DNA from: an uncultured Bacteroidales bacterium
Lineage (GTDB): Bacteria; Bacteroidota; Bacteroidia; Bacteroidales; UBA10428
Direction of reading: 5' to 3'
Assembly (NCBI GenBank): GCA_963705125.1
Contig: CAVPIY010000012.1
Coordinates: 722,443 to 786,442 of the forward strand
Length of the DNA: 64,000 nt
A program made the position numbers and the translations under genes. Below are positions 7,793-31,138 of this stretch, piece after piece; position 1 is the first letter of the stretch, and each line of letters opens with the position of its first letter. Below the pieces are notes generated by a model, which ran no database searches, had not been told where the DNA came from, and was given only the letters and a program-made list of their open reading frames with translations.

Positions 7793-8890
7793 ATGAAAAC
7801 AACCAGACATTCCGGTCTTGACCGGAGGGAATTCCTGAAAAAAAGTGTGGTTACCATGGGCGCATTGGCTGCTGCACCGGCTATTAATTCTTTTGATCAA
7901 CTTTTTACTGCTTCCCAATCGGTGGTCAGTATAGTGAAAATACAGGATGACCGGGTGGATTATGCGGTTGAGAAGGCGATCGACCTGCTGGGCGGCATCA
8001 AACAGGTTACACAACACAAACAGAAGATCATGCTGAAACCCAACCTGGTGGCAGATGATCCGAACTGTACCACAAAACCGGTTGTCATTAAAACCCTTGC
8101 CAGAATGATGAAAACAGCCGGTAAAGACGTGCTGATCGGTGAAGGATCAGCGGCTGCAGGAGGAATCAATGCAGACGATAACGGGATTTACTTCACCCGG
8201 AATCCTGAATTGCTTGATAAAATGCAGCAACAGGTATTCGATACCCTGGGGTATACGGATCTGGCCAGGGAGCTTGGTATCCCCCTGATCAACCTGCATA
8301 CGGGTGAAATGGTTGAGGTGGAGGTCCCGGATGCCCATTACTTTAAAAAGCTAACCATACATCGCTCCCTGCGGGATATCGACCTGTTGTGTTCGGTACC
8401 CATGATGAAGACTCATGTACTGGCCACCGTTACTCTGGGATTAAAGAATGTGATAGGCCTCTACCCGGGAACAGCCTATTGTTCGGTGAGATCTTGCGTG
8501 CATGCAGAGGCCGAGCAGGGCGGATCACCCGGTATTGCCTATGAGATACTTGACATGGTGAAGGCCAATAAAATGGGACTGACTGTCATCGATGGTTCCA
8601 TGTCCATGGAAGGAGATGGCCCTTCAGGCGGCCCGCTGGTCAAAACAGATCTGATCATTGCCGGCACCAATCCCCTGGCCACCGATATGGTGGCTGCAGC
8701 TACCATGGGTTATGAACCCGGTGAGGTCCCCACCTTCGACCTCGCCCATAAATCGGGCATGAAACCTGATACGCTTGATGAAATAGAGATCAGGGGTGAA
8801 AAAATAGAATCAGTCAGGCGGATTTTTGCAAGGGCCAATGTAATACCTTTTCATAGCATTAAGGATTGGTGGGGGGTTAAGGAGGTGTAG
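7793..8890 (+). CDS. DUF362 domain protein with twin-arginine signal
   Basis: 365 aa with the N-terminus GLDRREFLKKSVVTMGALAAAPA (Tat-like). The KIMLKPNLV... core is typical of DUF362. Confidence 0.65.
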   Translation: MKTTRHSGLDRREFLKKSVVTMGALAAAPAINSFDQLFTASQSVVSIVKIQDDRVDYAVEKAIDLLGGIKQVTQHKQKIMLKPNLVADDPNCTTKPVVIKTLARMMKTAGKDVLIGEGSAAAGGINADDNGIYFTRNPELLDKMQQQVFDTLGYTDLARELGIPLINLHTGEMVEVEVPDAHYFKKLTIHRSLRDIDLLCSVPMMKTHVLATVTLGLKNVIGLYPGTAYCSVRSCVHAEAEQGGSPGIAYEILDMVKANKMGLTVIDGSMSMEGDGPSGGPLVKTDLIIAGTNPLATDMVAAATMGYEPGEVPTFDLAHKSGMKPDTLDEIEIRGEKIESVRRIFARANVIPFHSIKDWWGVKEV

Positions 8891-8902
8891 AAGCGGTAAC
8901 CG

Positions 8903-8948
8903 GTATTCAGTAATCAGTAATCAGTAATCAGTATTCAGTATTCAGCAG
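8903..8948. repeat. heptanucleotide tandem array TCAGTA(A/T) x ~6
   Basis: The tandem units are read directly from the sequence, between the convergent DUF362 and zinc-ribbon genes. Confidence 0.9.
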
Positions 8949-8954
8949 ATTGTA

Positions 8955-9218
8955 TTACTTTTTCCACCGCTCGAGCCTGCCCATACCCATTGTCATGAAC
9001 TTCGCAACAAACCGGGGATATTTCATTTCCACCAATTTGTCCACCACAAAATCACGCATTTGCGGCTTGGTCATGTCGGGTTCGAAGAACTGGCCGTTCT
9101 GGTAGCAATAGCTGCAATACATAGCGGATCTGGTACCATCAGCATTGGTCCCTCCGCCTTGCGGGTCCTGCTTGAAAGGCATCATACAGCTCTGGCAGAA
9201 TTTGTAGGTTTTTTCCAT
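8955..9218 (-). CDS. zinc-ribbon domain protein
   Basis: 87 aa with CQSC...CSYC cysteine pairs. The pattern FCQSCMMP...YCSYCY resembles the putative zinc-ribbon (Zn_ribbon_2) family. Confidence 0.65.
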   Translation of the reverse strand: MEKTYKFCQSCMMPFKQDPQGGGTNADGTRSAMYCSYCYQNGQFFEPDMTKPQMRDFVVDKLVEMKYPRFVAKFMTMGMGRLERWKK

Positions 9219-9228
9219 GGAACAGGAT

Positions 9229-9269
9229 GTTAGTTGATAGTTGATAGTTGTGTGTTGTGTGTGTTGATT
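9229..9269. repeat. heptanucleotide-type tandem array (AGTTGAT / GTTGTGT units)
   Basis: The tandem units are read directly from the sequence. They lie just upstream of the zinc-ribbon gene. Confidence 0.8.
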
Positions 9270-9446
9270 ATAATCTAATCAAGTTTGCTGTTTATAATGT
9301 AAGAAAAATACGCTGGTTCTCAAAACAAAATGCCCAAAAAAATCCAATATTATTTTTTCGTCACCCCTGAATATAATCTGTAAAGATTGAGTAGATTTAA
9401 AGTATCCCAAATGTTTAAATTCCGATAACCACCATCTAACATTCCT

Positions 9447-10445
9447 ATGTCTAAAAAAGAAAAGTTTGATTCATTTCTGAAAGAGGGGCCTGTCAGGGGA
9501 TATATTCCCTTCCACCCGATCCTGATGCATTTTGCAGCCCGGTTCAGCCAGTCCACCTACGGTGAATTTGCTTCCGATTACCGTGTCCTGGTAGAAAGCA
9601 ACATCAAAGCACTGGAGTATTTTGATCTTGACTGGGTTGAACTGATCTCGGATCCGTACAGGGAAACCACGGCCTTTGGTGCCGCCATCGAATATGTCCC
9701 CGAGGGTGTTCCCAAATGCCTGCAAAAGATCGTCGAGAACCTAGACGATGTCCTTGCCCTGAAAAATCCGGATGTCTATAAATCAGCCCGCACCCTTGAC
9801 CGGATCAGGGGTGCTGAATTATACCAGAAAATGCTGAAGGGAACGGTCCCGGTATTCGGATGGATTGAAGGTCCGCTGGCCGAGGCATGCGATCTGGCAG
9901 GTGTAAGCGAGATGCTGATGATGCTGATGTCGGATCCTGATTTTTCAAACCGGCTAATGGATAAATGCATGGTGACAGCCCGTGAATTTGCCAGGGCACA
10001 GGTTGAGGCAGGCTGTGACGTGATCGGTATGGGTGACGCCATTTGCTCACAGATCGACCTGGAAATGTACAACACCTATGTAAAAAACCGGCATATTGAC
10101 CTGGTGGATTTCATTCAATCGATTGGCGGCAAAGTGAAACTTCATATTTGTGGTAATATTACACATCTGCTCCCAGCCCTTAAAGATCTCGGGCTTGACA
10201 TCCTGGATATCGACTGGCAGGTTGATTTTGAGGAAGCCCACCGGATAATCGGGGATAATGTATCCATTTGTGGCAACATCAACCCCGTAAAAATCCAGGA
10301 TGCGCATGAAGAAGAACTTTATACCATAGTCCGTGAACTCATGCAAAATGAGAAAAACAAAAGGTTCATCTGCAGCGGCGGATGCGAAATAACCGTGAAT
10401 ACACCTGCCGGGAATTTGCTGGCCATGAGAAAGGCACTTGAATGA
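9447..10445 (+). CDS. uroporphyrinogen decarboxylase (URO-D) family protein, MtaA/CmuA-like
   Basis: 332 aa with a URO-D-like TIM-barrel pattern (ISDPYRETTAFG..., GMGDAICS, HICGN). Confidence 0.65.
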   Translation: MSKKEKFDSFLKEGPVRGYIPFHPILMHFAARFSQSTYGEFASDYRVLVESNIKALEYFDLDWVELISDPYRETTAFGAAIEYVPEGVPKCLQKIVENLDDVLALKNPDVYKSARTLDRIRGAELYQKMLKGTVPVFGWIEGPLAEACDLAGVSEMLMMLMSDPDFSNRLMDKCMVTAREFARAQVEAGCDVIGMGDAICSQIDLEMYNTYVKNRHIDLVDFIQSIGGKVKLHICGNITHLLPALKDLGLDILDIDWQVDFEEAHRIIGDNVSICGNINPVKIQDAHEEELYTIVRELMQNEKNKRFICSGGCEITVNTPAGNLLAMRKALE

Positions 10446-18383: not shown

Positions 18384-19733
18384 TTACAGCACAATGGGTT
18401 TTCCCATGTACAGATCAATGATCTTGAGTTTAAAAATGTATTCGTATTTCGCCTGCAGCATGCTTGATTTGGCGCTGATCAGGTTATTCTGAGAGATATT
18501 GTAATCCACAGAATTCACCAGGCCTACCTCCAGTTTCTGGCTGGTGTATTTAAAGGCCTCTTCGTTGTATTTTACCGCCTCCACACTGGAATAGTATTTC
18601 TCCCTTGCAGCTGAAGCATCGGTATGAGCCTGCTGGACTTCTTTATAAAGGGCCATTTTCGCAATTTCAAGCTGAAGCTTGTAATCATTTAATTGCAATT
18701 TCGAATTGCTTATTGAATTTTTGACTTCCAATTTGTTAAAAAGAGGAATCGATACACCAAAGTTCAGATTTTTGTAAAAGAAATCATTCATCTGATCCTT
18801 GAATTGGTAATCTGTTTCCGGATCCAAAGGATAGTTGGCGACCTGGGAATACCGGCTGGACAGGTTACCATTCATGTAAATGGAGGGACTTACCCGACCC
18901 CAGGCCATGGAAAGCTGTTTTTCGGAACTCTTCAGGGCAAATTCGGCACTTTTGATCTCTGGCATGGTATTCAGGGCTTCAGTGAAAATAACCTGAACCT
19001 GTTCAAGGGGTGCCAGTAACTCAACCTCAATATTACTGGGAATAACGACATCAAAACCACCTGTCGAATCCAGATCCAGCAATTGGGTCAGATCGAGATA
19101 GGCGATTTCCTGGTTGTTTTGTGCATTGATGAGACTGGTCTTGTCATTTGATTCCTGTGCTTTGATCTGCAAATATTCACCCTGCGCTACATTGCCAACT
19201 TCCAGCATCTTGCGTGTGCGTTCCGCCTGCAAGGCAGTTACGTCAAGCTTGCTTCGGGATACTTCAACCAGCTCTTTGGAAAAAAGGACCTGCAAATAGG
19301 CCAGTGCCAGTTGAAGTGCGATATCATTTTTTGATTTTTCCAGGTCTGATTTGCTTTTTAAGAAATCATACTTGGTTTTCATTATGTTGTTGATAATCTG
19401 AAAACCCCCGAACAACGTCACACTGCTGTTGAGACCAACCGTTCCTGACCAGTATTGTTCATTGATGTATTTCGGAATTGTACTGGAGTAGTCAATGGTC
19501 TTTCCGTCGCTTTTGCCATAGTTGATTTGCCCGTTCAGATCGGGTAATGTATTGAAATAACTTTGATTATGATTGTTCTTATTATATTGGACGTTCAGTT
19601 CCTGCCGTTTGATCTGTAAATTATTCTCAAGTGCATATGCAATACATTCCTCCAGCGACCATGCTTTTTGTGCCTGCAAAGGCATGAAGCCTGAAACAAC
19701 AAGCAGGCACAAAAATAACACTACTTTTCTCAT
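18384..19733 (-). CDS. TolC family outer-membrane efflux protein
   Basis: It has the signal peptide MRKVVLFLCLLVVSGFMPLQAQ and two TolC-like repeats (LEECIAYALENNLQIK...). It is the last gene of the efflux operon. Confidence 0.8.
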   Translation of the reverse strand: MRKVVLFLCLLVVSGFMPLQAQKAWSLEECIAYALENNLQIKRQELNVQYNKNNHNQSYFNTLPDLNGQINYGKSDGKTIDYSSTIPKYINEQYWSGTVGLNSSVTLFGGFQIINNIMKTKYDFLKSKSDLEKSKNDIALQLALAYLQVLFSKELVEVSRSKLDVTALQAERTRKMLEVGNVAQGEYLQIKAQESNDKTSLINAQNNQEIAYLDLTQLLDLDSTGGFDVVIPSNIEVELLAPLEQVQVIFTEALNTMPEIKSAEFALKSSEKQLSMAWGRVSPSIYMNGNLSSRYSQVANYPLDPETDYQFKDQMNDFFYKNLNFGVSIPLFNKLEVKNSISNSKLQLNDYKLQLEIAKMALYKEVQQAHTDASAAREKYYSSVEAVKYNEEAFKYTSQKLEVGLVNSVDYNISQNNLISAKSSMLQAKYEYIFKLKIIDLYMGKPIVL

Positions 19734-19767
19734 ATCATTGATTTTTATATAGTTGGCTGTAATAATA

Positions 19768-20064
19768 TTACGATTTCTTTTTTTTCCGGTATAACACATG
19801 GATATGATCGGCATGCTCATCGGGATTAAATATCTGTATCAATTCCCAATCCTTGTCATATCCGTCAATGGCGCTCTTAAGCTTATAAATCCGGGCCAAT
19901 GATTTTTCGAGTGGATCAGAAAGATTGGAAAATTCGTTTTCTTCTTCCCAGGGGAATGATTCAATCCTGAAATCATACCGTATCTTCTTACCTGCCAGAA
20001 GGACTTCAACTTCGGCAACCTCTTTGTCTTTGAGGTATGGAATGGGAATACAGATCTCTTTCAC
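19768..20064 (-). CDS. hypothetical 98-aa acidic protein
   Basis: An intact ORF lying between the ABC ATPase and TolC genes. It has no TM segment and I recognise no family. Confidence 0.45.
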   Translation of the reverse strand: MKEICIPIPYLKDKEVAEVEVLLAGKKIRYDFRIESFPWEEENEFSNLSDPLEKSLARIYKLKSAIDGYDKDWELIQIFNPDEHADHIHVLYRKKKKS

Positions 20065-20075
20065 GTCATCACAGA

Positions 20076-20759
20076 TTATAAGATTTGTCTGATATTTTCA
20101 GTGACTATATGTCCGTCGAACAGCTGTACAATGCGGTGGGCTTTGTCGGCATCCGAGGGTGAATGGGTAACCATGATGATTGTGGTACCTTCATTGTTCA
20201 GTTCGGAAAGCAGGTTCATTACCTCTTCACCATTGGCTGAATCCAGGTTTCCTGTCGGCTCATCAGCCAGAATCAGCTGAGGCCTGGTTACAACTGCCCT
20301 GGCAATGGCCACGCGCTGCTGCTGACCTCCGGATAACTGCTGGGGGAAATGTTTTTTCCGATGCGTAATTTTCATGCGTTCAAGCACATCTTCCACTTTC
20401 TTACGCCGTTCGGAAGCTGATACTTTCAGGTACAGGAAGGGTAATTCAACATTTTCGTAAACAGTAAGCTCATCAATGAGGTTAAAACTTTGAAAAACGA
20501 AGCCGATATTTCCTTTTCTCAGGTTGGTCCGTTGTTTCTCCCTGTATCTGGCTACTTCTTCACCGTTGAAATAATACTGTCCGTCTGAAGGAGTGTCCAG
20601 CAATCCCAGTATATTCAGAAGCGTTGATTTTCCGCATCCTGACGGACCCATAATGGCAACAAATTCACCCTTTTCCACGGTGATGTTTACCTTGTTCAGT
20701 GCAGTTGTTTCCACTTCGTCTGTGCGAAAAACTTTTACGAGGTCAATTGTTTTGATCAT
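20076..20759 (-). CDS. ABC transporter ATP-binding protein (MacB/LolD type)
   Basis: It carries Walker A GPSGCGKST, the signature LSGGQQQRVAIARA and Walker B LILADEPT. Confidence 0.9.
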   Translation of the reverse strand: MIKTIDLVKVFRTDEVETTALNKVNITVEKGEFVAIMGPSGCGKSTLLNILGLLDTPSDGQYYFNGEEVARYREKQRTNLRKGNIGFVFQSFNLIDELTVYENVELPFLYLKVSASERRKKVEDVLERMKITHRKKHFPQQLSGGQQQRVAIARAVVTRPQLILADEPTGNLDSANGEEVMNLLSELNNEGTTIIMVTHSPSDADKAHRIVQLFDGHIVTENIRQIL

Positions 20760-20789: not shown

Positions 20790-22062
20790 TTAATTCTTTT
20801 TCAGGATAAGTTTATCCGCATCACCAAAGTTCTCGTAGTCAGAGATGATGACCTTCTCACCTTTCGAAAGTCCTTCCAGGACTTCATAATAACGCGGATT
20901 CTGGCGCCCGAGCCGTATCTTCCGGCGATAAGCCATATCGCCTGACGGATCGATGACAAAGACCCATTGTCCGCCCGTGCTTTGATAGAATCCTCCTCTG
21001 GGAAGCAGAAGGGCATCTTCCGATTCTCCAAGCTCCAGATGAATGCGGGCTGTTTGCCCGATCCGGATCTGTGCCGGAATCTGGCTGGTGAATTCCATAT
21101 CCACGGCAAACGTTCCGTTGCTGACCTCAGGATAGACCTTCATGATCCGGAGTGAGTTCTTTTGTCCGGCAAAATCAAAGTCAGCCGGTAATCCCCGTGG
21201 CTATCCGGGTAATGTAATGTTCATCGATCAGCACACGCATTTTATATGAATCAAGAATATTTATTGTTCCGATGTGACTGCCATAATTGACCACCTCACC
21301 CACCTCGGGATTCAGTGTGGCCAGTTCGCCGTCAACCGGAGCTTTGATATCCAGATTCTCCAGTCTGCGCCGTGTGAGGTGCAGGTTTTTCTGCATGCGA
21401 TCAATGGATTCTTCATCTGCTGCCATACGGGTTTTAAAGTAAATCGAATCCCGGTTGTATTTTTGTTTCTGCAATTCCAGCTGCAATTTGTTTTCCTCGA
21501 AGAGTTCCTTCGAATAAGCAAAATCTTCTTTGGAGATCAGGTTTTGTGAATACAGCAAGAGGTTGTTTTTATATTGTCTTTCAAGCTTCATCAGACCATA
21601 TTGCAGTTGAAGAATGTTGGAACGTGTTTGCAGGTTCTGGTTCTCGAGGTTAATGCGGGCTGTTTTCAGGTCATTCACGGCCCGCGAAACATCTGCTTCA
21701 TTGCTTGAGATATCGAGTAAAAGATTGTAATTGCTCAGCTTCAAAATCACATCACCCTTTTTAACACGGGTTCCCTCTTCGATCAGTTTTTCTTCAACCC
21801 TTCCTGATTCCACTGCATCCAGGTAAACATTTTTGATGGGTTCAACAGTTCCATTCACGGAGATGTAATCCTGGTATTTGCCGGCAATAACTTCCCCGAT
21901 GGCAATCTTGTCCTGCTCCACATTCAGTTTGGAGCTTTTATCCCCAAATACGAGTTGTAAAGCAACCAGGATAAAAACCAGCACACCAATCCCAATCCAA
22001 ACATGCTTTTTTTTCAGGCCCTTTTGTCTCGATTTTACGATCCATTCCTTCCATTGGTGCAA
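20790..22062 (-). pseudogene. HlyD-family periplasmic adaptor, one frameshift near 21185-21196
   Basis: The N-terminal 293 aa contain a TM segment, lipoyl-like region and coiled coil. The C-terminal 117 aa form a beta-barrel. A 1-nt correction reads ...RIATG(I)TADFDFAGQKNSLRIMKVYPEV.... Confidence 0.8.
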
Positions 22063-22322: not shown

Positions 22323-23700
22323 ATGAGTGAAAAAATTGGAAACATTCTGGCAGTTGATGATAACGAAGATATTTTATTTGCGTTAAAACTCTTGCTGAAA
22401 CCTCATGTCGAAAAACTAACCACCCTGAACAGTCCGGACAAGATGCCGGAAATGCTGACCAAGGAATATTTCGACATGATCTTGCTGGATATGAATTTCA
22501 ACAAGGACGCCATTAGCGGACAGGAGGGATTCGACTGGCTGGGCAGAATACTGGAAATCGATCCCCAGGCTGTGGTGGTGTTTATCACAGCATATGGTGA
22601 TGCGGAAAGGGCTGTAAAAGCCATTAAATCAGGCGCCACTGATTTTGTCTGAAAGCCCTGGCAAAATGAGAAACTCCTGGCAACCATTTCCTCCTCAATT
22701 AAACTGAGGCGGTCCAGGCTCGAAGCCAATGAACTGCGTGCCAAGCAAAAGGAGATCAGCGCCGTGATGGATCAGCCCTTTGTCGATTTCATCGGCAGTT
22801 CTACCCGGATGCAGGAGGTATTCAACACCATTAAAAAAGTGGCCCAGACCGATGCCAACGTGCTCATACTGGGAGAAAACGGTACCGGTAAGGAATTGGT
22901 GGCCCGTGCCCTGCACCGCAATTCACCCAGGCGCGATGAGGTATTTATCAGTGTTGACCTTGGATCGTTGAGTGAAACCCTGTTTGAGAGTGAGTTATTT
23001 GGTCATGAAAAGGGTGCATTTACCGACGCCAAAAAGGAAAAACCCGGACGGTTTGAAATTGCCTCCCACGGTACCCTTTTCCTCGATGAGATCGGGAACC
23101 TCACCTTCCCGATGCAATCGAAGATACTCACGGTTATTGAACGTCGTGAAGTCACCCGGGTGGGTGCAAACCGACCGGTCTCCGTTGATGTAAGGCTGAT
23201 CTGTGCCACCAACAGTGACCTGTATGAATCGGTGAGCAATAACCTGTTCAGACAGGACCTGTTGTACCGTATCAATACCGTGGAAATACACCTGCCGCCC
23301 TCTGCGTGATCGCGGCGATGATATTGAATTGTTATCCAATCCATTTCCTGAAAATATATTCTAAAAAATACCGGAAATCCTTACGGGGGATTACTGCTGC
23401 TGCTTTGAAAAAGCTGATGCACTATGGCTGGCCGGGTAATGTGCGTGAATTGCAGCATGCCATTGAACGGGCTGTTATCATGACAGAAACACCCTCGCTT
23501 GAACCTGAAGATTTTATCTTTCCCCACCCCGTAAGAAATCAGGCGATCTTGAATTTGACACCTATAACCTTGATGAAATTGAAAGACGGGTTATTGAAAA
23601 AGTGATGAAACAGAACCAGGGCAATATTTCCCAGGCAGCACAGGAACTCGGGCTTACCAGAACTTCTTTCTACCGGAGGATGGAGAAATATGGTTTTTAG
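22323..23700 (+). pseudogene. sigma54-dependent (NtrC-type) response regulator, with multiple indels
   Basis: It has a REC domain (DMILLDMNF), an AAA+ domain (GENGTGKE, GAFTDA, GTLFLDEIG) and a Fis HTH (GNISQAAQELGLTRTSFYRRMEKYGF). There is an in-frame TGA at 22650-22652 and frameshifts near 23297, 23336 and 23530. Confidence 0.85.
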
Positions 23701-25048
23701 AAATTTCAGGCTGAATATTATTATCCGCGTCATCCTGCTGGCTGCGTCCATCTACCTTCTATTCTATATTTTAAGGTCCGACTATTTCATTGCACCTGTC
23801 ATTGTGGCAGTAGTCGTAATTTTTGAGATAGCCTCACTGATCCGGTATCTCGATAAAACAAACCGGGAACTGACCAGTTTTCTTGAATCAATCCGGTTCT
23901 CCGAATTTACCCGGACATTTCAGATAGAAAGCATGGGCGGCACATTTAATGAGTTGAACAAGGCTTTCAATGAGGTGATGCAGGATTTTCAGAAAGGTCC
24001 GGGCCGAAAAGGAAGAAAGCTTTCATTACCTGCAAACCATCGTGCAAAATATTGATGTAAGTGTTATTGCCTACAGCGCCGACGGGAATATCGAACTGAT
24101 CAATAAAACTGCCAAAAAACTTTTTCAGCTGGCCAGCATCAAAAATATCAAGGCACTGGAAACACTCAGCCCTGAGCTTGTCTGCCACCCTGCTGAACAT
24201 CAAAGCCGGGCGAGAACAAACTGGTCAAAGTGCAATACGATGATGATATCCTGCAGCTGGCTATTTATGCATCAACCATCAAGGTAAAGACAAGCTTATC
24301 TTATCTGGTTACCATCAAGGATATCCAGAATGTGCTCGAGGAACAGGAAACTGAAGCATGGCAGAAACTAATCCGTGTGCTTACCCATGAGATCATGAAT
24401 TCCATTACCCCCATCGCCTCGCTGTCATCCACGCTCGATCTGATGCTGAAAGGCATGGTAGCCGGGGGAAACGGTGAAGAGCTGAATATAGATAAGGAAT
24501 CGGTTTCGTGAAATTCAGGAAGCCCTCCAGACCATCAACAAACGGAGTACAGGTCTGTTGCATTTTGTCAATACATACCGGAACCTGACGCGTATTCCCA
24601 AACCCAATTTCAGGCTCTGTCAGGTAAAGGAACTCTTCAACAATATCGAGAAACTGATGGAGGAGGAGATGAAGCGATGCGGATTTGAATTCATTGTCAG
24701 GGTTGAACCCGAAAATCTGCAATTCACCGCTGATGACCAGCTGATTGAACAGGTGCTGATCAACCTCCTGAAGAACTCAATGCATGCATTGAACGGCAGG
24801 CCAGACGGCAGGATGCAGTTGCTTGGATTCCTGAACAAAAGAGGAAGGGTGACCCTTCAGGTGACCGACAACGGACCGGGTATTCTGAAAGATGTGCTGG
24901 ATAAGATTTTTATTCCTTTTTTCACAACCAAACCATCCGGATCGGGCATCGGACTGAGTCTTTCCAAACAGATCCTGAGGTTGCATAACGGCACCATTAC
25001 AGCCATTCAGAACCGGAAGTGGAAACGGTGTTTACGATGACGTTTTAG
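23690..25048 (+). pseudogene. sensor histidine kinase, with multiple indels
   Basis: It has two TM segments, an H-box (LTHEIMNSITPI) and an ATPase domain (DNGPGI, FFTTKPSGSGIGLSL). Frameshifts lie near 23995, 24190-24230, 24505 and 25005. Confidence 0.8.
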
Positions 25049-25081
25049 GCTGTAGGCTTTAGGCTGTTAGGCTGTTAGGGG
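25046..25081. repeat. heptanucleotide array TAGGCT(G/T) x ~5
   Basis: The tandem units are read directly. They are the reverse complement of the array at 25514-25585. Confidence 0.9.
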
Positions 25082-25147
25082 TAATTAATTTCTATTTTTA
25101 TTAGAATATAATGTACTTTATATGTTATTTGCAAAAAACCTAAAAAA

Positions 25148-25519
25148 ATGAGAGACCATACTAAATTAAGGGCATTTGAATTGCCGATGAAGCAGCAATC
25201 ATGATCTATAAAATAACCCGGAGGTTTCCAAAAGATGAAATATACGGATTAACATCACAAATGAGGGTGCTGGTGTATCAGTGGCATCAAATATCGTTGA
25301 AGGATGTGCCCGTAAGTCAAAATGAGTATTGTAGATTTCTTGAAATGGCCTTTGGATCACATAGGGAGTTGCATTACCAATTTGGATTATCATTCGTTAG
25401 GATACATTAAGAATCAGGAAGGCAATTTAACTGTGAATCGAAAGTACTTGAGCGCTGAGGAGTCTGCCATTCCTGAATACGAAGATTGCGTTAAAATCTG
25501 CTACTGTCTTAACGCCTAA
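25148..25519 (+). pseudogene. four-helix-bundle protein (23S rRNA intervening-sequence protein family), frame disrupted by homopolymer indels
   Basis: MRDHTKLRAFEL..., IYKITRRFPKDEIYGLTSQMR, AGVSVASNIVEGCARKS and EYCRFLEMAFGSHRELHYQ are spread over two frames. The 3' end is uncertain. Confidence 0.7.
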
Positions 25520-25585
25520 CAGTGCCTAACAGTCTAACAGCCTAATAGCCTAACAGTCTAACAGCCTAACAGTCTAACAGCCTAA
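25514..25585. repeat. heptanucleotide array CCTAACAG-type x ~10
   Basis: The tandem units are read directly. It is the inverted partner of the array at 25046-25081. Confidence 0.9.
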
Positions 25586-25636: not shown

Positions 25637-25644
25637 TATATTTG
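25637..25644 (+). promoter_or_regulatory. candidate Bacteroidota -7 box (TAtaTTTG)
   Basis: It matches TAnnTTTG, 16 nt upstream of the ATG at 25660 in an AT-rich spacer. Confidence 0.4.
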
Positions 25645-25659
25645 CAGCAAATATTAACC

Positions 25660-26308
25660 ATGGATACTTCATCAATCGATATCCGTTATTCTGCCCTGGC
25701 AGAACAAACCTGCTGCCTTTCCTGCGGCGGGGCAATCATTTTGCCGGGCCCCTTCCGGGAGAAAATTGTGTTGATCTTGGCAGTGGCCGTGGGAACAGAT
25801 GTTCTCCGCATGGCTGAAGAAGTTGGTGAAAAGGGATTTGTGATCGGTGTGGATGTGTCGGAAGGCATGCTGGAGACAGCCCGCAGAAATGCATCCAAAC
25901 TGGGCATTTCCAATGTCAGTTTTATCCGGTCCGACCTGGAGACCCTTCCCGTTGCAGACGGATTCGCTGACCTGGTCATTTCCAATTGCACAATCAATCA
26001 CGTAACCGACAAGAATAAAGTATGGCAGGAAATTTATCGCATATTGAAAAGCGGGGGCAGATTTGTGGTGAGCGATATTTATGCTGTTCACCGTGATCCC
26101 GGATGAATACAGGAATGATCCGGTGGCTGTTTCCGAATGCTGGGCAGGAGCCGTTACACGTGAAGAATATTTGAAAACACTGATTAAAACCGGATTTAAC
26201 AGTATAGAAATACTGGAAGAAAGCGAACCTTACCAGAAAGGTAAGGCAGAAATCGCAAGTTTTACTATATTTGGGAAAAAAGAAAAGAAATGCAGTTGTT
26301 GTTCATAA
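25660..26308 (+). pseudogene. arsM: ArsM-like SAM-dependent (arsenite) methyltransferase, frame disrupted
   Basis: It has an N-terminal CCLSCGG, VISNCTINH (conserved Cys context), GGRFVVSD and a C-terminal KKCSCCS. Motif I reads VLILAVAVGTDV, which becomes VLDLGSGRGTDV after reversing two homopolymer changes. A frameshift lies near 26090. Confidence 0.65.
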
Positions 26309-26324
26309 TAATATAGTTCACATC

Positions 26325-26423
26325 ATGAAATCACTAACCAAAAAGAAAAATCAGGCAAAAACCCGTAAGGTTGCACAATGCTGTGCCAAGAATTCTAAAA
26401 TAGTTGCCGGCTGCCACGACTAA
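26325..26423 (+). CDS. 32-aa Lys/Cys-rich small ORF (MKSLTKKKNQAKTRKVAQCCAKNSKIVAGCHD)
   Basis: It starts with ATG 16 nt after the methyltransferase stop and ends 52 nt before the radical-SAM start, on the same strand. The frame is uncertain because the ORF contains A-runs in an error-prone region. Confidence 0.35.
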   Translation: MKSLTKKKNQAKTRKVAQCCAKNSKIVAGCHD

Positions 26424-26475
26424 AAATGATCATGGCGGTTTAATCAGGTGCCTTATCCGGCAACCTGTAAAAACC

Positions 26476-27781
26476 ATGGAACGCTCCAGACACAATATTT
26501 TCTCGGCAATTCATCAGTCAGATGAATACTTTCTTGTCAATATACTTTCAGGAAATGCAGATATTCTTAACTCCGGCAGAAGCTCAGCGTTATCTCAGCA
26601 ATGAGGTAAACGGTGACCCGGAATACATTGAAAAAGGATATGTTGTCGATCCGGTTGAGGAAGAAAGGCTGTATCGCCGGAAGTATCTGGATTTCCTGGA
26701 TACCCGGGATAATGATGAAATTCAGCTCTTCTATGCTCCTTCCTATGCCTGCAATTTCAATTGTTCCTATTGTTATCAGGACGGCTACGGGCAGGGGGGA
26801 GCGAAAATGACCCTGCCGTAACCGCTGCATTTTTCTCCTATATCCGGAACCATTTTCAGAACCGGCAGAAGTATATCACTCTTTTTGGCGGAGAACCCTT
26901 GTTGGGTGGAACAGGCAACCGGAAATTCCTGACACGATTTTGTCCGGCAATGTCGCGAAAATAACCTCGATCTGGCCGTGGTTACCAATGGTTACCATCT
27001 TGAATCGTATATTGCCCTTCTGTCCGGTACCCGTATTCGCGAAATACAGGTTACACTCGACGGTCCTGAATCTGTCCACAATAACCCGGCGTCAATTGAA
27101 AGGAGGGCGTGAAACATTTTCATCCATAGTCCGGGGTATTGATGCTGCCCTGGCAGCCGGATTGCCGGTGAACCTGCGGGTAGTGCTTGACCGGGAAAAC
27201 ATCGCCGCATTACCTGAGCTTGCACAATATGCAGCAGACAAAGGCTGGACAGAGTCACCTCTTTTTAAAACCCAGCTGGGCCGGAATTATGAATTGCATT
27301 ACTGCCAGTCGCAGCAGTCCAGGCTATATTCCAGGATCGATCTTTACAAAGACCTGTATAACCTCATCCTGGAAAATCCGGTCATTCTCGATTTCCACAA
27401 ACCGGCTTATTCTGTCAGAAGTTTCTGTTTGAGAACGGCGAACTTCCCTCCCCCTTGTTTGATTCCTGTCCGGGATGCAAAACCGAATGGGCGTTCGACT
27501 ATACCGGTAAAATATATTCCTGCACAGCCACCGTGGGCAAGCCGGGTGAGGAGCTGGGTGCTTTTTATCCGCAGGTAAATCTGAACGGTGAACTGGTGGA
27601 AAAATGGCAGCAGCGGGATGTACTTAGCATCAAGGCATGCGGGAGTTGCAACCTTCGTTTGGCCTGCGGCGGAGGTTGTGCCAGTGTTGCCTATAACCGT
27701 GAAAAAGAACTGCATGCACCTGACTGCAGGCCGGTCAAAGAATTGCTGGAACTGGGAATGTCCCTTTACTCCCGAACTTGA
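26476..27781 (+). pseudogene. radical SAM / SPASM-domain enzyme with a ~90-aa N-terminal extension, at least 5 frameshifts
   Basis: CNFNCSYC (CxxxCxxC) lies at about residue 92. It also has ITLFGGEPLL, VVTNGY and a C-terminal CGSCNLRLACGGGC (Cx2Cx5Cx3C). Frameshifts lie near 26570, 26800, 26930, 27085 and 27425. Confidence 0.8.
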
Positions 27782-27823
27782 AGAGAAGAATCCTCAACAA
27801 CATAAATTAAATCCTTAAACATC

Positions 27824-29097
27824 ATGAAAGAAATTGCTACCGCTGATTTTGAAGCCGAAGTATTGCAGGCTGATAAAGTGGTCCTCGATTTTTATTCCTC
27901 CGAATGTCCGCCATGTGAGGCATCTGGCGCCAAAATTCGAATCCCTGGCTGCCATTTATGGCAAAGACATCAAATTCCTGAAGGTTTTCAGGCAACAGAA
28001 CCGCGACCTGGCTGAACGGCTTGGTGTATCAGGCTCCCCAACCCTGGTCTTTTTTGATCACGGCAAAGAAGTGGGCATCCGCTTATCCGGAGGGATCAAG
28101 CGATCGGAAATCATGGTTAACCTGAATGCCATGTTGGCCCCGGAGAGGGTTTCGGCCCTGAAGAGCAAACTTAAACCTTTTACTTCCGATTATGATGTCG
28201 CCATCATCGGCAGCGGTCCCGGTGGACTCACAGCAGGATTATATCTCTGTCAGGCGCGCATCAATACGGTATTGATCGATACAGGCCTGCCCGGCGGTCA
28301 TGTCAGCCTCACCCACCAGGTTTCCAATTATCCCGGATTTCATTGATCCCCAACCGGGATACCTTCTCTCACACAATATGTCAGAACAAACCAAAAAATG
28401 CGGGAGCACATTCAAGGTTGCCGTGGATGTCACACGGGTTGACCTGGAGAAAAAGCAAATTATAATCGACGAATTCGAGACGATTCAGGCCAGAAAGATC
28501 ATCATTGCCACAGGCACCTCGCCCAATTATCTCCATGTTCCGGGAGAAAAGGAATTTAAAGGCAAGGGAATTTCGTATTGTGCAACCTGTGATGCAAAAT
28601 ATTATGTTGATAAGGAAGTTTTGGTCATCGGGGGTGGCAATTCAGCCGTGGAAGAGGCTGAATTTATTACCAAATTTGCCTCCAAAGTCACGCTTGTTCA
28701 TCAGTTCGACAAGTTTCAGGCTAACAAGCAGGCCCAGGAGAAATTGCTGGCCAATCCCAAGGTAAAGGTCTTGTTCCGCCATGAACCCAGGTCCTTCAGC
28801 CGTAAAGGCGACAGAATGGTTGTTACCATAGAGGACCTGAGCACCAGTAAATTGAAGAAGCTGGTCGTGGACGGGGTGTTCATCTTTGTCGGCTTAAAAC
28901 CGAATATCGACCTGTTTGGCGGCAAACTGGAAACCGACAAATGGGGTTACCTCAAAACGGATGAAGATATGCATACCAACCTGGATGGGATTTATGCAGT
29001 CGGCGATGTCAGGAGCAAGAAGTACAGGCAGATCACAACAGCCATTGCCGATGGGACAATTGCTGCCATCAGTATCACCCGGGAGCTGGACAACTAG
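27824..29097 (+). pseudogene. thioredoxin-domain / thioredoxin-reductase fusion protein, 2 frameshifts
   Basis: The N-terminal Trx fold carries SECPPCE...GSPTLVFF. The FAD/NADPH reductase part follows with DVAIIGSGPGGLTAG, CATCD, GGGNSAVEEA and GDV. Frameshifts lie near 27925 and 28340. Confidence 0.8.
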
Positions 29098-29121
29098 GCT
29101 GTTAAGCTGTTTGCTGAAACT

Positions 29122-29212
29122 TCTTCGGAATTCGACATTCAGCGTTCCTTGTTCGGTGTTATTCTATAGCAAATAACACTGAACAAGGAACATCGAATAA
29201 TGAATAACGAAG
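29122..29212. terminator. long hairpin (20-bp core stem) downstream of the Trx-TrxR gene
   Basis: GTTCCTTGTTCGGTGTTATT (29144-29163) pairs with AATAACACTGAACAAGGAAC (29172-29191) with one G:T position. The outer arms are imperfect and there is no U-tract. Confidence 0.45.
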
Positions 29213-29283
29213 ATGTCAGCTACCACAAGATGTCGCCAATAAGCAACCCAGAATGATAAAGGTCTGTTTCATAGTATGAGTAT

Positions 29284-31138
29284 CTATTTTTCCGGAATCC
29301 AGGTGCAGATCTTTTTCCCCTTCCAGCTGTCCACCGAAGCATAATCTGTCATATGGATCATGCCATCAGTTGTGGGAACAAGAAATTGCATTTTTGTTGT
29401 TTTCAGGATGGGTGTTTCACTTTTAATATCCACATAACCATCTTTTGAAATAAGTGTGACGGGCTTGTCAAAATCAGGATCGATGTTTTCATCCCTGGCT
29501 ATAACTATGGGTCCCATTACCAGGGCCTGAAAATGATCTCCTTTCCTGTTGCTCCCCTTTGGTGCATCCATCACACGGCATCGCATGTCAAGCAATAATT
29601 CAATCTGATCCCCGGCAGTCCATTTACGGTTTATGTCTGCATAGGTACCTGCCAAAGCCTGCAACGGTTCTCCATTAATTTTCAGAATTGTTTCCCTGCT
29701 CCATGAGGGGATCCTCAACCTGAGACTGAACTTCTCTGATTTTTGTGGTGTCACCAGCAATAATATTTTTCCGGATAACGGAAAGTCTGATTTAATTTCC
29801 AGTTTTACATCCCTACCATCCGGTGTCTGTGCTGTTGCAACAGCTGCATTATACAGGTTTATAACCGGGCCCTGCTTCGAATTCATAACCGCTACAAACG
29901 GCAGATAGGCCAATCCCATCGGACCGTTTAAATTGCAGCAGGTAACATAAACGCCATCTACATTTCCGCCCCAGCCTTCGGGATTTGTTTTTACCCCATT
30001 TAAAAGATTGACATAACTGAATCCGTCCCCTGCAGGTTTCATCGCTCCGATCAATCCGTTATAGGCATACTTTTCAATCATATCCACGGCCAGAGGATCA
30101 CCGGTTAACCGCAAGTATCTGGCTGCACAATTTTAACCAGGTTACGCCGACACATGTTTCCATCATCCGTTGCATATCCGGGTTTGTTTGTTCAAGTGCT
30201 GTATTATCCCACCCCTCACCCATCACAGCCGGATGATAGGGCTGATCTCCGCCGCCGTTTCCAATGAGGGTAATTTCCTGTTTTATGATATTATGATACA
30301 GGTTCATAATTGACTGCTTCCAGTAATCATTCCGGGTAATCCTGTAGTATTCCGTGAGCCCTTCAAATAGTGACATCATTTCATAGGCCTTTGGATACAC
30401 ACCACCAATTTTCATCGGAATTACATGGTTATAAGCGTCTTCAATGATCCGATAACCCTTGGCGCCTCCCTCGGTTTCAACGATATATCGGGCAAAATCG
30501 AGATACCGTTCATATTTTGTCAGGTTATATAAACGCAGGATCGGTTCAAGGACCGTACTTGACTCTATATGGTTCGGGCTCCAACCCTGATCAAGGATCG
30601 GGACCTTTGGGTAAGGACCTGTTTGCGCAAGGATGCAATCCGCCTGATCGATCATGGCTTGTAATACTGCCGTATCCTGGTTCACCTGCCTGTAATATTC
30701 ATCCAGGCCTAACAAAACATATTTTCTTTCCCATAAATCACCTCCCGGACCATCGGGTTGCTGAGAAACAGGGGAACAGCTGATGCTGCCATTTTCGCGT
30801 TTTGCAGATAAAAGATCGTAAACAGTAGATTGAAGTATCTCTTTTAATTCAGGATCCTGTGTATAACGATAAAACATACAACCCGACCGGACCGCCTTCC
30901 CCCACATTTCTCCCTGTGCAAAAAATTCTCTTCCGGTCCTGAATTTCTGTACAAATCCTGCATATGGCACTACCCCTTTATTCCAGTGGATTATGGAGTT
31001 CTGTATATAGTCTTCAAAATAGCCTGTGAAATGAATTGAATTGGGATTTAAAGGAGTAAACTGATCCGTTTCCTTCGACGAAGGACGGCATGCAGTGAGT
31101 GCAATACAAACGAGAATAAGAATCCCGGATTTTTTCAT
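29284..31138 (-). pseudogene. GH127-like (DUF1680, beta-L-arabinofuranosidase family) lipoprotein, one frameshift near 30105
   Basis: It has the lipoprotein signal MKKSGILILVCIALTAC. ETCVGVTWLKLCSQIL is followed, in the next frame, by RLTGDPLAVDMIEKYAYNGLIGAM. Confidence 0.6.

Follow-up and report, generated by a model that had tools for sequence, protein, structure and literature searches.

A 64,000-nucleotide stretch of DNA from an uncultured Bacteroidales bacterium (contig CAVPIY010000012.1; hereafter the window, meaning the whole stretch that was analysed) carries a four-gene operon that, judged by comparison with other genomes, is widespread, vertically conserved and shared, with hardly any change, by hundreds of species of anaerobic bacteria. 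It encodes an S-adenosylmethionine (SAM)-dependent methyltransferase of the ArsM family, a 32-aa Cys-rich peptide, a radical SAM-SPASM enzyme and a fusion of a thioredoxin (Trx) with a thioredoxin reductase (TrxR)-like flavoprotein. We propose, with a probability of roughly 0.5, that the operon produces a thiol peptide of the RiPP type (a peptide made by the ribosome and modified after translation), probably intracellular, whose partners would be a methyltransferase of the metalloid type and a reductase dedicated to it. The pairing of a precursor with a radical SAM-SPASM enzyme is already known; that such a pair has an ArsM-family enzyme and a reductase of its own as obligate partners is unprecedented. 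The four genes are as follows.

25660-26308, + strand: ArsM-family SAM methyltransferase, about 215 aa; best NCBIfam match NF008823; three single-base indels
26325-26423, + strand: putative precursor peptide, 32 aa, MKSLTKKKNQAKTRKVAQCCAKNSKIVAGCHD; open reading frame (ORF) unbroken
26476-27781, + strand: radical SAM-SPASM enzyme with an N-terminal domain resembling a RiPP recognition element (RRE), about 435-441 aa; five single-base indels; matches intact 441-aa orthologs
27824-29097, + strand: Trx (CPPC)-TrxR-like flavoprotein (CATC) fusion, about 423 aa; Pfam Thioredoxin and Pyr_redox_2; two single-base indels

An earlier interpretation of the window, made from its letters alone (the sequence-only reading), had described four ORFs packed on one strand, and the coordinates 25660-29097 agree with it: the spacers, in the order methyltransferase, peptide, radical SAM enzyme and reductase, measure 16, 52 and 42 nt. 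The methyltransferase starts at the ATG at 25660 (MDTSS..., as in orthologs) and not at the TTG at 25642.

A colinear cassette conserved across bacterial phyla

The radical SAM protein, stitched across its frameshifts, has more than 3500 relatives, the best 120 of which are 57-91% identical to it and range in length from 418 to 481 aa, with nearly all of them at 432-461 aa. A scan of a one-genome-per-species collection returned at least 583 stretches encoding the enzyme, and the conservation counts given here refer to the 80 best loci among them. The peptide gene lies beside the radical SAM gene in 79 of these 80 loci, the Trx-TrxR gene is present in 78 and the methyltransferase gene in 76, three of the four misses being contig edges. 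The order methyltransferase-peptide-radical SAM-reductase is kept almost throughout. Conservation of the neighbourhood and of the small ORF in relatives had been named beforehand as what the earlier interpretation depended on, and both are borne out by a cassette that stays colinear across at least five phyla. The loci come from Bacteroidota and Ignavibacteriota (Bacteroidales, Cyclobacteriaceae and Salinivirgaceae; Ignavibacteria and Melioribacter), from Spirochaetota including Brevinematales, from Myxococcota/"delta-proteobacteria" and from Syntrophomonadaceae. In addition, a Calditrichota protein shares a 90% cluster with the Spirochaeta radical SAM enzyme, and a search begun from the methyltransferase found the full cassette in two further complete genomes. 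Intact colinear copies of all four genes are present in a Bacteroidales-like contig from JGI, in a 566-kb contig of a metagenome-assembled genome (MAG) and in the isolate genome of Spirochaeta isovalerica.

A few loci depart from this layout. L066, an Ignavibacteriales MAG, is the only one of the 80 with the radical SAM and Trx-TrxR genes yet neither methyltransferase nor peptide within 5 kb upstream, where a major facilitator superfamily transporter is found. In L006 and L051, the Trx-TrxR gene is not adjacent to the radical SAM gene.

The small gene encodes a conserved candidate precursor

The last 16 residues of the peptide read AQCCAKxSxxxxGCHD, directly followed by the stop codon, and 11 of these positions are invariant in 82/82 copies. 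The N-terminus is also conserved and consists of MKSL followed by a Lys-rich stretch (MKSL..KK). At the DNA level, the core occurs in 82 distinct versions among 84 copies, and the invariant positions draw on the full range of synonymous codons, with both codon families for Ser and all three stop codons among them. Such an invariant core encoded with all the synonymous codons therefore indicates selection on the translated product. The ratio of nonsynonymous to synonymous substitution rates (dN/dS) of the peptide gene, calculated between the window and the intact ortholog locus L001, is 0.056.

A profile search with the peptide retrieved 1453 protein clusters. Among the 120 clusters listed, every named one is a "hypothetical protein" and none carries a Pfam domain; the peptide itself matches no NCBIfam or Pfam model. 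With a small translated ORF co-located with a maturase gene and a leader/core layout, the gene has at the sequence level what is expected from a putative RiPP precursor, and the peptide is very probably the substrate of the adjacent radical SAM enzyme.

Some Myxococcota, delta-proteobacterial and spirochaete precursors have a longer leader with a second CC pair (L032, L060, L072, L079, L081 and L074), for example ...PVCCAPPPDAKVAQCCAK.... This second pair suggests that vicinal dithiols are functionally important beyond the core.

The radical SAM enzyme appears to represent a new family of putative RRE-SPASM maturases

The stitched enzyme is 91% identical to intact 441-aa orthologs. An intact ortholog scores 62 bits with the radical SAM model PF04055 (cutoff 29.5), and its predicted fold matches radical SAM structures. 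The two cluster-binding signatures pointed out in the sequence-only reading can both be read in the window. The CxxxCxxC motif spans residues 92-99, and its C92, C96 and C99 are invariant in 81/81 orthologs. The Cx2Cx5Cx3C SPASM motif is CGSCNLRLACGGGC, and the window's own C-terminal fragment reaches 43.1 bits with the SPASM model TIGR04085, above the cutoff of 27. SPASM domains are defined by the seven-Cys motif CX9-15GX4C...CX2CX5CX3C...C, which binds two auxiliary [4Fe-4S] clusters. The whole set of seven SPASM cysteines (C331, C349, C388, C391, C397, C401 and C417) is invariant, and Cys276 is a further invariant cysteine of the protein.

The AlphaFold2 model of an intact ortholog has a predicted local distance difference test (pLDDT) score of 87, rising to about 95 over residues 1-70. 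In this model, the N-terminal ~77 residues are predicted to form strands at 7-11, 18-22 and 27-31 and helices at 33-40, 48-52 and 59-77, a three-strand, three-helix topology placed ahead of the barrel that appears RRE-like. When the model was submitted to Foldseek, the SCIFF thioether maturase CteB came first, with a template-modelling (TM) score of 0.65-0.70 over the whole length (453-474 alignment columns for the 441-residue query), followed by anSME and SuiB. CteB is also matched by the family sequence profile searched against the PDB, at E = 1.6e-19.

The best NCBIfam models for the enzyme are all maturases of Cys-rich peptides, and all score far below their cutoffs: CefB (NF038107), 144-153 bits vs 600; TIGR04463, 121-142 vs 525; the Clo7bot model, 108 vs 600; and PapB (NF047865), 89-114 vs 340. 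Because of these low scores, we assign the enzyme, on sequence grounds, to a new family within the RRE-SPASM maturases that is neither anSME nor another characterised family. Membership of a family such as anSME had been put forward as a possible objection, and no equivalog cutoff is reached. Two candidates were specifically rejected. The anSME model (TIGR03942) gives 61-76 bits vs a cutoff of 349; anSMEs have no N-terminal RRE-like domain. The model of the SCIFF maturase ScfB/CteB (TIGR03974) gives 65-86 bits vs 425, and the precursor core differs as well.

Among PDB entries, CteB nevertheless matches the enzyme best in both structure and sequence, and the two systems share several traits: an N-terminal domain that is an RRE in CteB and is predicted to be RRE-like in the cassette enzyme, a radical SAM barrel, a SPASM domain with auxiliary clusters, and a short, conserved, Cys-rich precursor encoded next to the enzyme gene, with no dedicated protease. 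They differ by their sequence identity of only ~17%, by a peptide core that is unrelated to the six-Cys-in-45 pattern, and by their composition, since SCIFF is a two-gene system whereas the cassette has the ArsM-like methyltransferase and the Trx-TrxR protein as obligate partners. The CefA/CefB (Cys-every-fifth) and TIGR04463 families, which are defined in silico, are comparable in that their models align over the full length of the enzyme, N-terminal domain included, and that their targets are also Cys-rich peptides; in contrast, the scores lie far below the cutoffs and the cassette peptide matches none of the available models. Our literature search found no published chemistry for the CefB and TIGR04463 families.

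Taken together, the presence of the peptide in nearly all loci, its invariant core, the RRE-like model and CteB as best superposition strongly support the RiPP-like half of the sequence-only reading.

The methyltransferase keeps the cysteines and the fold of ArsM

Arsenite methyltransferase NF008823 is the best model for the methyltransferase, with intact orthologs scoring 193-194 bits vs a cutoff of 263. ArsM models that are specific for given pathways score lower (NF040538, 107 vs 500; NF040539, 108 vs 240; NF038099, 82 vs 400). Among 79 orthologs, C110 and C160 are present in all 79, C22 and C37 in 77, and C18/C19 in 74-75. In a HMMER alignment to CmArsM, C22, C110 and C160 correspond to C72, C174 and C224, which are the As(III) ligands; loss of the As-binding cysteines upon sequence correction would have spoken against an arsenic-related role, and they are retained in the orthologs. 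Most orthologs also end with a CC, CCC or CCCC tail. The AlphaFold2 model of the protein has a pLDDT of 87, and its top 12 Foldseek matches in the PDB are all ArsM or AS3MT, with TM scores of 0.72-0.79 when normalised to the query and of ~0.5 when normalised to the target. The methyltransferase thus appears to retain, according to alignment and model, the As(III)-binding cysteine set and the ArsM fold.

Like the ArsM/AS3MT enzymes of known structure (CmArsM 4fr0, CrArsM 5evj, human AS3MT 8xt7), it combines a Rossmann SAM domain with an As(III)-binding domain and has an N-terminal CC pair. Unlike them, it is devoid of the ~100-aa C-terminal domain and of ~50 N-terminal residues, and in the loci examined it is never part of an ars operon and always paired with the peptide and the radical SAM enzyme. 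ArsM-family genes adjoining a radical SAM gene are known from the ArsL-ArsM (arsinothricin) and ArsS-ArsM (arsenosugars) pairs. ArsL has been described as a non-canonical radical SAM enzyme with a CX3CX2C motif at residues 194-201. The cassette enzyme differs as a putative RRE-SPASM maturase with its motif at 92-99 and a peptide of its own, and its 25 best NCBIfam matches (the lowest-ranking of them, for P0001, at E = 8.6e-12) include no ArsL or ArsS model. The organoarsenical pathway that had been suggested as a second interpretation is consequently half supported: the methyltransferase has the ArsM cysteines and fold, but the radical SAM enzyme is a SPASM maturase and not of the ArsS/ArsL type, and no ars genes recur in the flanks of the loci surveyed.

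In the JGI annotation (proteins P0247-P0348), many of the cassette methyltransferases are named "arsenite methyltransferase" and others "UbiE". The former name would fit an ordinary arsenic-resistance arsM gene that happens to lie beside unrelated genes, with the small ORF arising by chance. Such an explanation has a practically negligible probability, since it is contradicted by the synteny, with colinear co-occurrence in ~76-79 of 80 loci across phyla, and by the codon-level selection on the small ORF; the genes also have no ars operon context.

The fourth gene encodes a predicted AhpF-like reductase

The CPPC site of the Trx part is found in 71/76 orthologs of the fusion protein and the CATC(D) site of the flavoprotein part in 74/76. 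The protein scores 197 bits with Pyr_redox_2 and 297-322 bits with the thioredoxin-disulfide reductase model TIGR01292, just below its cutoff of 343. The AhpF model TIGR03140 aligns across both parts, and both proteins carry an N-terminal Trx fold with a CxxC site fused to a flavoprotein of the low-Mr TrxR type with CATC. Membership of the AhpF family was rejected: the score (192-202 bits) is far below the cutoff of 503, the cassette reductase has one Trx fold instead of two, with a CPPC site, and no peroxiredoxin is encoded in the cassette. As AhpF serves one dedicated partner, AhpC, a dedicated partner is suggested for the cassette reductase as well.

In E. coli TrxR, the HRRxxxR motif binds the 2'-phosphate of NADPH. 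Here, HQF(D/E)KxQA stands in its place at about residue 290 (~28690-28720 in the window) in 41/76 orthologs, those in which the motif search matched. This replacement hints at NADH or another electron donor, so the donor is uncertain.

Frameshifts in the window look like consensus errors

Three of the four genes are broken in the window, by ten frameshifts within 3.4 kb. The sequence-only reading had flagged them; they are present in the sequence, and we placed them by alignment to the intact locus L001, whose radical SAM protein is 91% identical. Three indels lie in the methyltransferase gene (~25737, 25790 and 26089), five in the radical SAM gene (~26564, 26800, 26934, 27083 and 27418), two in the Trx-TrxR gene (~27924 and 28332) and none in the peptide gene. 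The neighbouring genes for a membrane fusion protein (MFP), a response regulator, a histidine kinase and a GH127 protein are also split.

This high density of lesions, in the cassette and in its neighbours, raises the alternative of a decaying pseudogene array, in which the ten indels would be real and the system non-functional in this genome. The distribution of the lesions speaks for decay as well: they cluster in 20.8-31.1 kb, while 49.6-63.9 kb holds six ORFs that run without interruption for 366-968 aa, 693-968 aa in four cases, and the indels are therefore concentrated locally. Candidate causes of this uneven density are local low coverage, a strain mixture or real decay. On the other hand, all lesions in coding regions are single-base indels, and larger internal deletions are absent from all the genes. 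Once frame-corrected, the genes contain no in-frame stops and their dN/dS against L001 is 0.05-0.09. Two of the methyltransferase indels are 53 nt apart, and the SAM-binding DLGSGRG motif remains readable in the other frame between them. Finally, L087, a related contig that comes from an assembly of the same kind (ENA assembly, 64,397 bp, 89.5% nucleotide identity), is frameshifted at different positions and has an intact methyltransferase gene. On these grounds, the ten indels look like consensus errors, so that the copy in the window would be intact in reality. The peptide ORF, untouched, adds to the evidence against decay, and the decayed cluster that the earlier interpretation had kept as an alternative is very improbable.

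The radical SAM gene of the window stops ~8 codons before that of L001, at a TGA (27779-27781) that is an insertion relative to L001. This early stop may be a true shorter C-terminus or another error.

Proposed pathway and competing explanations

We infer every chemical step of the following model from what is observed, namely gene content, synteny, invariant residues and fold-level similarities. The RRE-like N-terminal domain of the radical SAM enzyme would bind the MKSL/Lys-rich leader of the peptide, and the enzyme would abstract a hydrogen atom in the AQCCAKxSxxxxGCHD core, leading to one or more cross-links. By analogy with the nearest relatives of the enzyme, Cys-derived thioethers are the likeliest product, to which we give an even chance. 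The ArsM-type site of the methyltransferase might bind a thiophilic centre, either As(III) or another metalloid of this kind, that the peptide thiols hold or deliver, and SAM would methylate this centre and no ordinary C, N or O of the peptide; this step is tentative and falls somewhat short of even odds. On balance, we expect the AhpF-like Trx-TrxR protein to re-reduce the disulfides formed in the methyltransferase and the peptide during turnover. The product would probably act within the cell, in the role of a carrier or cofactor and not of a secreted antibiotic, because no protease or exporter conserved across clades was found in the flanks of the cassette.

Several arguments favour a metalloid as substrate of the methyltransferase. 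The As(III)-ligand set is kept across phyla, and CC motifs recur in the N-terminus and tail of the methyltransferase, in the peptide and in some leaders. ArsM, too, uses the thioredoxin system, which is reportedly the reductant of the ArsM disulfide cascade in vitro (Rosen laboratory). Repeated CC/CU motifs across one gene neighbourhood have been taken to suggest soft-metal handling (Haft and Gwadz, preprint).

Some observations weigh against a metalloid-linked peptide pathway. The methyltransferase remains below the NF008823 cutoff and has no counterpart of the C-terminal domain of the crystallised ArsMs. We surveyed 392 flanking proteins in 226 clusters (locus counts out of 86), and no ars-type gene (ArsR, ArsC, Acr3/ArsB) is recurrent among them. 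The regulators adjacent to the cassette vary by clade, being a sigma-54 two-component system, MarR or LysR. In the absence of recurrent ars genes and with such variable regulators, nothing therefore ties expression of the operon to arsenic. A conversion of Cys to thioether by the radical SAM enzyme would leave fewer thiols to chelate a metalloid. In the Bacteroidales clade, a MacAB/TolC-like efflux set lies nearby, making export possible there. The local concentration of the indels, described above, also counts here.

Part of this evidence is shared with a methylated RiPP that involves no metalloid. In this case, the radical SAM enzyme would cross-link the peptide, and a recruited methyltransferase would methylate the peptide itself, for example on the thiol of a Cys, on the His or on the carboxylate of the C-terminal Asp. 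Trx-TrxR would only keep the cysteines of the peptide and the enzymes reduced, and the finished peptide would be a cofactor, a signal or a ligand for metals. Among the enzymes that tailor RiPPs, class I methyltransferases are common, and the lanthipeptide methyltransferase LahSB (6uak) is found among the weaker PDB sequence matches of the cassette methyltransferase. The sub-cutoff score and shorter architecture of the latter and the lack of ars genes in the neighbourhood agree with this explanation, and the invariant non-Cys residues of the core (Q, K, S, H and D) fit recognition by several enzymes. However, C-, N- or O-methylation of a peptide would not need the metalloid-binding cysteines and the CC tail that are kept across phyla, and the top 12 structural matches of the enzyme are without exception ArsM/AS3MT. 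We consider this alternative, the main rival of our model, somewhat unlikely.

The metalloid model that we prefer can also be put in a more specific form, in which methylation of a metalloid (As or Se) in many glutathione-poor anaerobes would need the radical SAM-matured tri-thiol peptide as obligatory carrier or co-substrate of the short ArsM. At its extreme, the radical SAM enzyme and the methyltransferase would jointly build a peptide-bound organo-metalloid. Stated so specifically, extreme version included, the proposal is unlikely.

Flanking elements and neighbouring genes

The following elements surround the cassette in the window.

18384-19820 (outer membrane efflux protein), 20076-20759 (ABC ATPase) and 20793-22062 (HlyD-like MFP): tripartite efflux set, divergently upstream of the two-component system
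22323-23697, + strand: sigma-54-type response regulator, frameshifted
23690-25045, + strand: histidine kinase, frameshifted, directly upstream of the insertion
25044-25585, unstranded: inserted unit with inverted 8-mer arrays flanking a frameshifted four-helix-bundle gene (~25180-25410, PF05635 23S_rRNA_IVP)
25637-25644, + strand: putative -7 promoter box of the Bacteroidetes type, TATATTTG (TAnnTTTG), read from the sequence 15 nt ahead of the ATG of the methyltransferase gene
29119-29216, unstranded: long imperfect hairpin with a core 20-bp stem (29144-29163/29172-29191), between the convergent Trx-TrxR and GH127 genes

The TAnnTTTG box had been noticed previously and is found in 33/79 loci, of the Bacteroidales type, within 100 nt of the methyltransferase gene, mostly 19-27 nt upstream of the start. 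Scans for a sigma-70 consensus (8 vs 8.5 expected by chance, no enrichment) and for intrinsic terminators (4 vs 4.1 expected by chance) were negative. No sigma-54 promoter is visible by eye upstream of the methyltransferase gene, despite the adjacent sigma-54 activator. The sigma-54 response regulator and histidine kinase are found ahead of the cassette in 17-21 loci that all belong to the Bacteroidales clade, and a functional link between this two-component pair and the cassette is possible.

The sequence-only reading had called the module repeat-bounded, with a heptamer array upstream and a 20-bp-stem hairpin downstream. The hairpin is indeed present; it has a folding energy of -54.3 kcal/mol (z = -9.07) and is unique in the window. 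A T-run is missing from it, L001 and L087 do not share it, and Rfam returned for it only sub-threshold miRNA look-alikes; no tRNAs were found. It is probably a local terminator-like element outside the conserved module. As for the upstream array, it exists, but its unit has a period of 8 and is not a heptamer: 9.4 copies of TAACAGCC extend over 25510-25585, and a reverse-complement array, TTAGGCTG, lies at 25044-25079. Both flank the four-helix-bundle gene, an insertion that separates the histidine kinase gene from the promoter of the operon. The same insertion occurs with an intact gene in the close relative L087 (9340-9930), with a weak bAvd hit there, and its arrays are absent from L001 and 86 other loci. 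The 8-mer/four-helix-bundle unit may be small mobile or recombination-prone DNA. A repeat-bounded module was rejected accordingly, as the arrays belong to an insertion common to the window and L087 only, and arrays and hairpin alike are lineage-specific. A degenerate 8-mer copy is also seen after the Trx-TrxR stop, at 29099-29112.

Beyond the window, the survey of the 86 loci yielded the following recurrent neighbours. YceI apart, their theme is thiols and metals, which agrees with the proposed pathway.

DUF1847, Cys-rich (21/86 loci): optional fifth member, between the radical SAM and reductase genes in L025, L026, L031, L033 and L064
YceI (17-18 loci): Bacteroidales clade only, after the Trx-TrxR gene
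79-aa DUF6132-like predicted membrane protein with a C-terminal PCxTC (16 loci): mostly directly upstream of the methyltransferase gene
Membrane-anchored thioredoxin (~14 loci): downstream of the cassette in some genomes
MarR regulator (14 loci)
DUF302 (5 loci): downstream of the cassette in some genomes

Examples of the DUF6132-like protein are encoded at 7717-7956 in L085 and 7736-7975 in L086, both with PCxTC and the latter with GCTSGSC. After its Trx-TrxR gene, L001 carries a 212-aa gene, in which no YceI domain was found, and a DUF3307 ORF (8612-9631). In the window, only the long hairpin lies between the Trx-TrxR gene and the convergent GH127 gene (29098-29284).

Redox- and sulfur-themed accessory genes (extra thioredoxin, DUF302, a metallo-beta-lactamase-fold gene, MarR and DUF1847) could point to a module against thiol, sulfide or oxidative stress. 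The peptide would then be a ribosomally made low-molecular-weight thiol or redox buffer, recycled by Trx-TrxR, and the methyltransferase would detoxify reactive S/Se species. The AhpF-like character of the reductase fits this explanation, and many of the source MAGs apparently come from anoxic, often sulfidic habitats, judging by their record titles. Such a module, however, gives no specific role to the radical SAM maturase; its accessory genes occur in a minority of loci only (5-21/86), and the conserved core has no peroxiredoxin or rhodanese partner. We find it quite improbable.

Novelty of the cassette and what it would mean

None of the four proteins reaches an NCBIfam equivalog cutoff (June 2026 release), and their source names are all generic. 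A full-text literature search, to which subscription literature is external, found no published description of the cassette, and the string QCCAK had zero occurrences. ArsM-like selenoproteins are listed in the selenoprotein preprint of Haft and Gwadz and in a 2026 selenoproteome review, and the cassette is not among their entries. These searches are consistent with the statement of the sequence-only reading that the combination is not a described system.

Further parallels are the pathways of pyrroloquinoline quinone (PQQ; PqqA/PqqE/PqqD) and mycofactocin (MftA/MftC/MftB), which also have a very short precursor, a core that is conserved across phyla and a SPASM radical SAM enzyme using an RRE, for which the RRE-like domain would be the counterpart in the cassette. 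The conservation of the cassette peptide is housekeeping-like, as in these two systems; bacteriocin cores are variable by contrast. The cassette differs from both by the absence of family-level homology (mycofactocin radical SAM model, 58 vs 265 bits) and of a peptidase or tailoring set, and by its other partners. A peptide that is conserved in at least five phyla and forms more than 1400 clusters speaks for a physiological role like that of PQQ, mycofactocin and SCIFF, and against an antibiotic of particular strains.

The methyltransferase family of the cassette is probably counted as arsM in metagenomes of anoxic habitats. If these enzymes are not arsenite methyltransferases, the arsM inventories for anoxic sediments, groundwater and wastewater are too high. 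If they are, anaerobic arsenic methylation may depend on a peptide partner and a dedicated reductase, neither of which is supplied in standard assays. In culture, arsenic methylation by anaerobes with arsM is often poor. The system is experimentally tractable, as the cultivated Spirochaeta isovalerica carries an intact copy with a 31-aa peptide in an operon of less than 3.5 kb; its radical SAM enzyme is WP_184742836 and its peptide ORF MBB6478724. Should the peptide indeed be the obligatory carrier or co-substrate of the short ArsM, or part of an organo-metalloid, RiPP biosynthesis and metalloid biochemistry would be connected for the first time, and much of what is counted as "arsM" in anoxic metagenomes would be redefined.

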